From a virus (Duplodnaviria; Heunggongvirae; Uroviricota; Caudoviricetes): 21,819 nucleotides of DNA. Of this stretch, positions 17,842-19,353 are shown piece by piece. Each line of letters starts with the position of its first letter. Positions within the stretch are counted from its first letter, which is position 1. The notes below the pieces were generated by a model. The model saw nothing but the letters and a program-made list of their open reading frames with translations. It ran no database searches and had not been told where the DNA came from. Location: IMG/VR virus record IMGVR_UViG_2728369393_000012; one strand, given 5' to 3'. The position numbers and the translations under genes were made by a program.

Positions 17842-17915
17842 TTGCGTGTAATTGCGGAGACTTTGCGATGTATGAGGTGTACTGGCAATAGCGGACACTA
17901 CCATTTGTTCTTTTT

Positions 17916-18734
17916 TTAAGCAGCCATCTGATGATATTTTTCCCTGAAGGCTGCCGGGGAGATATTCCCCAGACGAGAGTGACGACGCTGACGATTGTAG
18001 AAAATCTCAATGTATTCCCGTATTACTGAGATGGCTTCATCCCGGTTATTAAAACGATAGTGGCTCAGGCTCTCATTTTTCAGCGTTCCCCAGAAGCTTT
18101 CCATCGGAGCGTTGTCGTAACAGTTACCTTTACGCGACATTGATGTTTTCAGACCAAACTGCTCCTGTATGACCCGGTAATCGTATGCGCAGTACTGTGA
18201 ACCTCGATCAGAGTGGTGGATTAGCCCGGCAGGTGGGCGCTGGCTCCTGAGCGCCATAAACAGGGCTTTACCTGTCAGCTCTTTTGTCATGCGCTCTCCC
18301 ATGGCGTAGCCGACAATTTCGCACGTATAAACATCTTTGATGCCAGCGAGGTACAACCATCCCTCCTGTGTGGCAACATACGTCAGGTCCGCCACCCAGA
18401 CCTGATTTGGTGCTGTAGGAGCGAACGTCTGGTTCAGCAGATTTGGCGCAACTGGCAGATTGTGGTTCGAGTTCGTAGTCGCTCTGAACTTGCGTTTCTG
18501 CTTACAGCGTAGCCTTAGCTCCTTACGAAGACGTGCCAGTCGGTCACGACCAACGATGATGCCATTCTCTGCCAGCTCCGTCTGGAGCCGCCGGGTTCCA
18601 TATGTTTCGCGAGTGCGGATATGTGCCACCTTAATCTCCAGTTTTAGCCGCTCATCACTTTGTTTTCTGTCTGAGGGTTCATGCTGTACCCAGTTGTAAT
18701 AACCGCTCCTGGATACACCAAATACCTGACACAT
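17916..18734 (-). CDS. IS600 OrfB (transposase)
   Basis: Identical protein to 3560..4378. Confidence 0.9.
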   Translation of the reverse strand: MCQVFGVSRSGYYNWVQHEPSDRKQSDERLKLEIKVAHIRTRETYGTRRLQTELAENGIIVGRDRLARLRKELRLRCKQKRKFRATTNSNHNLPVAPNLLNQTFAPTAPNQVWVADLTYVATQEGWLYLAGIKDVYTCEIVGYAMGERMTKELTGKALFMALRSQRPPAGLIHHSDRGSQYCAYDYRVIQEQFGLKTSMSRKGNCYDNAPMESFWGTLKNESLSHYRFNNRDEAISVIREYIEIFYNRQRRHSRLGNISPAAFREKYHQMAA

Positions 18735-18769
18735 CGCTTCAATGGGAAATTGTTGTCGCCATTGTTCGA

Positions 18770-19072
18770 TTAACGCGTATTTTTCAGCGACTCCTGTGCA
18801 AAATACGCTGTTGCTTTTTTTAATATATCTCGCTCAAGGCGAGCTTCATTTAACGCCTTACGCAGTTGCAGAATTTCAGATTCCAGTTCAGCCACCGTGC
18901 GGGAACCAGGAGTACCGAGCCCTTTTCTGGCGGCGGTAACCCATTGTCCTAAAGTGCCTTCAGGAAGAGATAATCGGGAAGCGCCTTCACTGATCGAAAG
19001 TTGATTTTCAAGAACCGTTCTGACAGCTTCGGCTTTGAACTCTTTAGAGTAACGTTGGGTTTTTCTGCTCAT
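18770..19072 (-). CDS. IS600 OrfA
   Basis: Identical protein to 3222..3524. Confidence 0.9.
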   Translation of the reverse strand: MSRKTQRYSKEFKAEAVRTVLENQLSISEGASRLSLPEGTLGQWVTAARKGLGTPGSRTVAELESEILQLRKALNEARLERDILKKATAYFAQESLKNTR

Positions 19073-19136
19073 TATTAGCTCCTTCTGATGCCATTCTATT
19101 TCAGGAAGGAGTGTCCGTTAAACTCAGGCTACCTCA

Positions 19137-19353
19137 GTACTTGACACTTCAGGAGTGGAACGCTCGCCAGCGACGCCCAAGAAGCCTTGAAACAGTTCGT
19201 CGATGGGTGCGCGAATGCAGGATATTCCCTCCTCCGGTTAAGGATGGAAGAGAGTATCTGTTCCACGAATCAGCGGTAAAGGTTGACTTAAATCGACCAG
19301 TAACAGGTAGCCTTTTGAAGAGGATCAGAAATGGGAAGAAGGCGAAGTCATGA
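19137..19353 (+). pseudogene. xis: Excisionase Xis with its initiation codon and RBS severed by IS600
   Basis: YLTLQEWNARQRRPRSLETVRRWVRECRIFPPPVKDGREYLFHESAVKVDLNRPVTG.LLKRIRNGKKAKS matches lambda Xis from residue 2; the native ATG is at 17868..17870 on the far side of the IS. Confidence 0.8.

Follow-up and report, generated by a model that had tools for sequence, protein, structure and literature searches.

The closest described relatives of the locus analysed here are the xis–int modules of phage lambda and of phages 434 and HK022. In lambdoid phages, the promoter pI sits in xis, and int is transcribed independently of xis (PMC2951348). The phage 434 record OL657226 annotates pI as TTGCGTGTAATTGCGGAGACTTTGCGATGTAC, with a cII site and the −35 element GTGTAA, overlapping the xis ATG; among the records examined it is the only one to do so, the lambda records NC_001416 and J02459 carrying no pI feature. 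Degraded lambdoid prophages are represented by the Sakai Sp prophages of EHEC, which combine T3SS effector genes with int, xis and regulatory genes damaged by IS elements and deletions, and of which the Xis-deficient Sp4 and Sp14 still yield circular forms (PMC2669165). The third point of comparison is IS600, which is found in Shigella and STEC genomes, for example in lacZ of STEC O121:H19, where the inactivated gene can regain its function upon IEE-mediated removal of the element (PMC9397093). In the O145:H25 strains CFSAN004176/177, IS600 is present in more than 50 copies per genome, 45 of them apparently active, and iee is itself reported to be interrupted by IS600 (PMC5567499).

The window, i.e. 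the whole stretch of 21,819 nucleotides analysed here (IMG/VR record IMGVR_UViG_2728369393_000012), is bounded by ybhB (1..477) and ybhC (20536..21819), between which lies an entire lambdoid remnant of ~20 kb at attB-lambda. The EHEC O145:H25 E. coli strain CFSAN004176 matches positions 17600-19500 at 100% and is near-identical over the rest of the window, barring 415 nt at the second of three IS600 copies. Very probably, the third copy represents a late, lineage-restricted hit in codon 2 of xis within a remnant that was already dead. The features at the site of this insertion are the following.

17856..17872, plus strand: orphaned xis start, with the Shine–Dalgarno (SD) sequence GGAG at 17856-59, the ATG at 17868-70 and the first two bases of codon 2 (comparison with lambda)
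17870..17872: target-site duplication flanking copy 3, left copy GTA
17873..19136, minus strand: intact IS600 (IS3 family) of 1264 bp, with IRR at 17873 and IRL ending at 19136 (three-copy comparison)
19137..19139: target-site duplication flanking copy 3, right copy GTA
19138..19353, plus strand: xis codons 2-72 and stop codon, native start codon absent (Pfam Exc, PF07825, E = 2.5e-40)

The original prediction had placed IS600 in the second codon of xis with a perfect GTA duplication, and this proved exact to the base, with boundaries, flanking GTA copies, reconstitution and empty site in agreement. The element entered between ATGTA and CTTG. Removal of the IS together with one GTA, which joins 17872 to 19140, gives ...GGAGACTTTGCGATGTACTTGACACTTCAGGAG...; neither lambda nor phage 434 differs from it over the stretch that starts 54 nt before the xis ATG and ends about 30 nt inside the gene. 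The comparison with lambda xis had been proposed with a join of 17850..17872 to 19137 and onward; this join retains both GTA copies, while the one from 17872 to 19140 restores the start. The reconstituted Xis comprises 72 aa, 71 of which are identical to lambda, with G59S as the lone change. BLAST against lambda returns two blocks, i.e. lambda 29074-29169 for window 17872-17777 (100%) and lambda 27724-29076 for window 20489-19137 (99.3%), whose overlap of 3 nt in lambda corresponds to the target-site duplication. The empty site, represented by the reconstituted 1434 nt, is found as a single colinear match of 99.7% in five complete E. coli genomes. As had also been claimed, the native ribosome-binding site and ATG of xis lie on one side of the element (17856-70) and codons 2-72 on the other (19138-19353). 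Hence, xis is no longer an intact gene with its own start and ribosome-binding site, its SD and ATG being 1267 bp away from codon 2.

The element itself is one of three IS600 copies in the window (copy 1, 3158..4421; copy 2, 4657..5920; copy 3, 17873..19136, inverted), whose mutual match ends exactly at TGAGGT...ACCTCA in every case. Copy 3 matches copy 1 at every base and copy 2 at all but one, which points to recent transposition. Its coding and regulatory features are the following.

19072..18770, minus strand: orfA (Pfam HTH_Tnp_1, 1.5e-20)
18734..17916, minus strand: orfB (Pfam rve, 3.2e-26, plus HTH_21)
18814-18820, minus strand: A6G slippery site (AAAAAAG) at IS position 317 (sequence inspection)
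19121..19093, minus strand: IS600's own promoter, TTAACG-17-TAGAAT, directed away from xis and int (promoter scan)

A simulated −1 frameshift yields an OrfAB of 385 aa, the length of the product that PGAP calls 'IS3-like element IS600 family transposase, programmed frameshift' (WP_085948186.1 in RefSeq, for an element without any base difference). Copy 3 thus displays an HTH-encoding orfA and an overlapping orfB of the DDE/rve type, the −1 frameshift, TG...CA repeats and a 3-bp duplication, as expected of the IS3 family. The terminal inverted repeats are imperfect, TGAGGTAGCC... agreeing with TGAGGTGTAC... at 19 of the first 27 positions. The measured length coincides with the 1264 bp that we take to be the length of IS600, for which a literature search turned up nothing. 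Arms of 1271 nt (17872-19142), as proposed by a repeat finder, were dropped, since on inspection the three copies have different flanks, the surplus bases being tolerated mismatches. In length, ends, orfA/orfB frameshift, 3-bp duplication and inactivation of a gene, copy 3 shares the properties of IS600 in Shigella and STEC genomes such as that in lacZ of O121:H19 (PMC9397093), and the sole difference in the use of the element is its target, namely xis codon 2 and the −10 element of pI. Duplications flank copy 3 (GTA/GTA) and copy 2 (TGT/TGT), and that of copy 1 is imperfect (GTC/TTC). The lack of a perfect duplication at 3155-3157 and 4422-4424, which flank copy 1, suggests an IS-mediated rearrangement or deletion. 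In the CFSAN004176 assembly, window positions 4422-4836 (415 nt) are missing, and a truncated second copy abuts the first; this difference reflects either polymorphism between strains or the collapse of a repeat.

The insertion affects more than the xis reading frame. Its surroundings contain the elements known from the lambda and 434 modules, as listed below.

17818..17845, plus strand: intrinsic terminator (stem 17818-17837 and T run) just 5' of pI and xis, identical to lambda and annotated in 434 (terminator scan)
17842..17855, plus strand: cII-binding box TTGCGTGTAATTGC of pI, with the −35 element GTGTAA at 17846-17851, as in 434 (OL657226), parted from int by the IS
19331..20401, plus strand: int, an intact ORF for a 356-aa lambda-type tyrosine integrase with its own SD (Pfam Arm-DNA-bind_1, Phage_integrase)

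Across the pI annotated in phage 434, the window is identical to that phage and to lambda. Placed by a 17-nt spacer after the annotated −35, the −10 element of pI would be TGTACT, overlapping ATG-TAC. This placement fits the transcript start of lambda pI, which is presumably located at ~29065. The insertion then cuts pI at TGTA|CT and leaves the cII box, the −35 and four of the six bases of the −10 at a distance of 1.27 kb from int. On the int-proximal side, the duplication regenerates AGTACT, preceded by IS sequence in place of the −35 and the cII box. Of a cII-dependent pI, which comprises a TTGC-N6-TTGC box, a −10 over the xis ATG and contiguity with int, the box and the −35 are thus present, contiguity is lost and cII is absent. 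A consensus scan of 17400-19500 found no sigma-70-like promoter on the plus strand toward int, a result that still leaves room for antisense read-through from the IS; besides the outward-facing transposase promoter of IS600 on the minus strand, it returned a strong terminator at 17818-17837. A literature search for an outward promoter of IS600 turned up nothing. With pI split by the IS and no plus-strand promoter in the scan, int probably lacks any promoter of its own. The expectation that int stays intact therefore holds for its ORF: the protein differs from lambda Int by three substitutions (A51S, H164P, I248V), has the arm-binding, core-binding and catalytic domains of a lambda-type tyrosine integrase, and retains R212, K235, H308, R311, H333 and Y342. 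It does not extend to pI, whose separation from int had gone unnoticed.

In summary, the locus shares with the lambda module (also that of 434 and HK022) a Xis identical in 71 of 72 and, relative to lambda, an Int identical in 353 of 356 positions, the xis–int overlap, the cII box and the upstream terminator. It also has in common with lambda the att core and the integration site between ybhB and ybhC. It departs from the module in that xis and pI are split by 1267 bp, in the absence of pL, N and cII in cis, and in the P arm of attR. The attachment sites are the following.

20475..20489, minus strand: attL core GCTTTTTTATACTAA, with the P' arm between core and int
568..582, minus strand: attR core GCTTTTTTATACTAA, with the P arm extending to ~788

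Both 15-bp cores are perfect, as befits an excisable integrated element. The P arm at attR (window 564-788) is 85.8% identical to lambda, and its substitutions cluster in the stretch from the arm sites to the core. At the opposite end, identity to lambda reaches 99.3% across core, P' arm, int and xis, and this gap shows that the ends of the remnant are of different mosaic ancestry.

The wider remnant is heavily reduced. Its deletion junction in the lambda alignment, and the effector genes that it carries, are located as follows.

11848..11854 (approximate): ninG'/'bet deletion junction, where the ninG 3' end meets the 3' part of bet (BLAST against lambda; partial NinG and Bet pseudogenes in PGAP)
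981..1634: EspJ-family effector gene
2533..3114, minus strand: NleG-family effector gene

At the junction, lambda 42898 (ninG) is fused to lambda 32224 (bet), so that, according to BLAST against lambda, the remnant has no equivalent of the immunity, replication and early regulation region at 32.2-42.9 kb; gam, kil, cIII, N, pL, rexAB, cI, cro, cII, O, P, ren and ninB-F are missing. The deletion of the regulatory region that had been predicted is thereby borne out. In the PGAP annotation, the late region is reduced to Q, a phosphatase, a holin and a tail-fibre fragment, with the morphogenesis genes gone. Of the components of a functional, inducible lambdoid prophage, i.e. immunity, N/pL, replication and morphogenesis genes, the remnant has none. 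It resembles the Sakai Sp prophages (PMC2669165) as a degraded lambdoid prophage that carries T3SS effector genes and whose int, xis and regulatory genes are affected by IS elements and deletions, yet it is more degraded than most of them, being devoid of repressor, replication and morphogenesis genes.

Several further observations concern this region. A 512-aa ORF (6812-8350, minus strand) apparently fuses a SAR-type endolysin N-terminus to a lambda Stf-like tail-fibre N-terminal domain, the tail-fibre part containing collagen-like GP repeats. This fusion points to a single deletion spanning R to stf and thus all head and tail genes; in the sister strain, PGAP annotates the endolysin and tail-fibre parts as separate partial pseudogenes. 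Another, distinct IS3-family element with a programmed frameshift occupies 14909-16112 (minus strand) in the ea22-like region; different IS elements are found in the sister strain, close to this position without coinciding with it. At 17466-17777, in the place of lambda orf55/ea8.5, there is an ORF of 103 aa (99 aa in PGAP, WP_001303965.1) with two CxxC motifs and no Pfam match. Flanked by short blocks 95-100% identical to lambda, it resembles the product of a mosaic module exchange within the exo–xis region. Finally, IS600 copy 1 (IRL at 3158) lies 43 nt 5' of the NleG-family start, displacing the prior promoter or 5'UTR.

The distribution of the junction and its relatives allows the lesions to be ordered. 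Of 5,426 complete E. coli genomes, that of CFSAN004176 alone has the exact junction (100% over 1901 nt), and the 80-aa fusion protein encoded across it is found in only 4 contigs among ~15 billion proteins, each time beside ybhC. By this distribution, the insertion is evidently a single, recent and lineage-restricted event. In strain 2014C-3011 (NZ_CP027591.1), one of the five genomes with the empty site, that site lies in the same remnant, which shares the ninG'/'bet junction, from which it follows that the large deletion is older than the insertion. In this sister lineage, two nucleotides are deleted from xis at codon 27/28 (GAATGCAG to GAGCAG), as seen around locus 19968-20186 of NZ_CP027591.1 and at 2470-2686 of a second record, and PGAP flags xis of OkiPb01679 as frameshifted. 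The sister lineage has thus evidently lost xis independently of the IS600 insertion. In O145:H28 RM12581, another remnant at the ybhC attB (locus 4288-5570) has an equally oriented IS600 some 75 nt inside int, next to an intact xis, and in strains EH031 and VL40 IS600 lies 5' of xis. These further cases were drawn with a query containing IS600 as well as xis–int, and the sample is accordingly biased toward them. The idea that the codon-2 junction is common to other STEC genomes was rejected, as IS600 interrupts int in O145:H28 and precedes xis in EH031 and VL40.

These data also bear on the prediction that the prophage is locked in place. It stands insofar as the remnant would be unable to excise by itself. 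However, this state does not depend on the xis lesion and has several independent causes: the ancestor shared with the IS-free sister already lacked pL, N and cII, and self-induced excision would hence have been lost before the IS arrived. Nor is the lock absolute. The att cores are intact, excision at a low level, with circular forms, is reported for other prophages that lack Xis, and Stx1a and other lambdoid phages have a xis 99-100% identical to that of the remnant. In addition, the CFSAN004176 chromosome (NZ_CP014583.1) contains a second match to the xis'–int query, so that a supply of Xis and/or Int in trans is possible. Reversal of the insertion by IEE was set aside for this lineage and is unlikely, given the reported disruption of iee in O145:H25 (PMC5567499).

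Taken together, the following course of events can be proposed. The lambdoid remnant at attB-lambda had first lost pL, N, cI, cro, cII, O, P and all of its morphogenesis genes. IS600, an IS3-family element that moves by copy-out/paste-in with a 3-bp duplication, then transposed into codon 2 of xis, parting the SD and ATG from codons 2-72 and splitting pI by the same cut. With transcription of the transposase running away from xis and int, Xis would not be made at all or would arise in traces from a GTG inside the IS, and int would persist as an intact ORF without a dedicated promoter in a remnant that cannot excise itself. Since regulators and morphogenesis genes had been lost beforehand, the insertion would have had little functional effect, and we infer that neutral decay, in a genome in which IS600 is expanding, is its best interpretation. 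Such decay would likewise accommodate the xis frameshift of the sister lineage and the O145:H28 insertion of IS600 into int.

Conceivably, the lesion was selected instead, because loss of the excision module would fix the EspJ- and NleG-family type III effector cargo in the chromosome; this would explain why int–xis is knocked out repeatedly. Effector genes are indeed present in the remnant, and three independent lesions are known at the same attB, namely IS600 in xis in the window, the 2-nt xis frameshift of the sister and IS600 in int of O145:H28. We nevertheless consider such selection unlikely. The promoters and regulators for induced excision had disappeared before either of the xis lesions and left little excision to select against, and random hits are to be expected at more than 50 IS600 copies per genome (PMC5567499). 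Moreover, the three lesions are anecdotes from a sample biased by a query that itself consisted of IS600 and xis–int.

Neutral decay also has to be weighed against the possibility that the IS end rewires xis rather than destroying it. The relevant reading frame begins within the element.

19111..19353, plus strand: ORF of 80 aa, MSVKLRLPQ followed by Xis residues 2-72, starting at a GTG 26 nt inside IRL and in frame with xis codon 2

From this GTG, a read-through or antisense IS600 transcript could be translated into an 80-aa Xis in which MSVKLRLPQ replaces Met1. The frame is open, matches Pfam Exc over residues 10-80 and is annotated by PGAP/RefSeq as an excisionase (WP_071961483.1), a CDS rather than a pseudogene. 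A secondary core AGGA 4 nt before GTG 19111 (about −4.3 kcal/mol) makes weak initiation conceivable. Yet the strongest anti-SD pairing of this start (AAGGA, −6.5 kcal/mol) lies flush with it at a gap of 0-1 nt, in comparison with 8 nt for the GGAG of native xis and 7 nt for the GAGG of int, each relative to its ATG, and GTG is the weaker start codon. The consensus scan found no plus-strand promoter in the IS or 5' of it. The identical extension recurs at IS600 copy 1 (ORF 2533..3183), where it is spurious and PGAP picks the native nleG ATG. Its occurrence at both copies 1 and 3 marks it as a generic feature of the IS600 end, which has a 1-in-3 chance of being in frame. Furthermore, the frameshifted xis tolerated in the sister lineage gives no sign of selection for Xis. 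A rewired xis is thus even less likely than a selected lesion. With an SD that abuts the GTG, translation would be inefficient, and the 80-aa ORF is probably translated poorly or not at all. The original prediction had called the extension an ORF-calling artefact without usable spacing to a ribosome-binding site. The poor SD geometry (0-4 nt) was confirmed; RefSeq calls the product an excisionase, but an artefact is the likelier reading, with trace translation possible.

Misassembly might be suspected as the source of the junction, since three almost identical elements of 1264 bp lie inside 16 kb, where one copy could have been misplaced, and since CFSAN004176 differs by 415 nt at copy 2. This is practically negated by a closed genome and 4 independent contigs, all of which contain the junction together with its two unique flanks, and by the clean 3-bp duplication and exact reconstitution, as misassembly would make no duplication.

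The late IS600 hit in a dead remnant, in a genome that is already published and annotated, is ordinary prophage decay, for which mechanism, element and xis module are all already known, and it adds one more case to the IS600 expansion described for O145:H25. Its importance is small outside annotation. There, WP_071961483.1 is better described as an IS-disrupted pseudogene than as an ordinary excisionase, and the junction, found in a single genome among 5,426 complete ones, offers O145:H25 epidemiology a clean marker of the lineage. The other useful point is that pI is cut along with xis: an IS in the first codons of a lambda-type xis also disables pI, and an intact int ORF is hence not proof of an expressed integrase.
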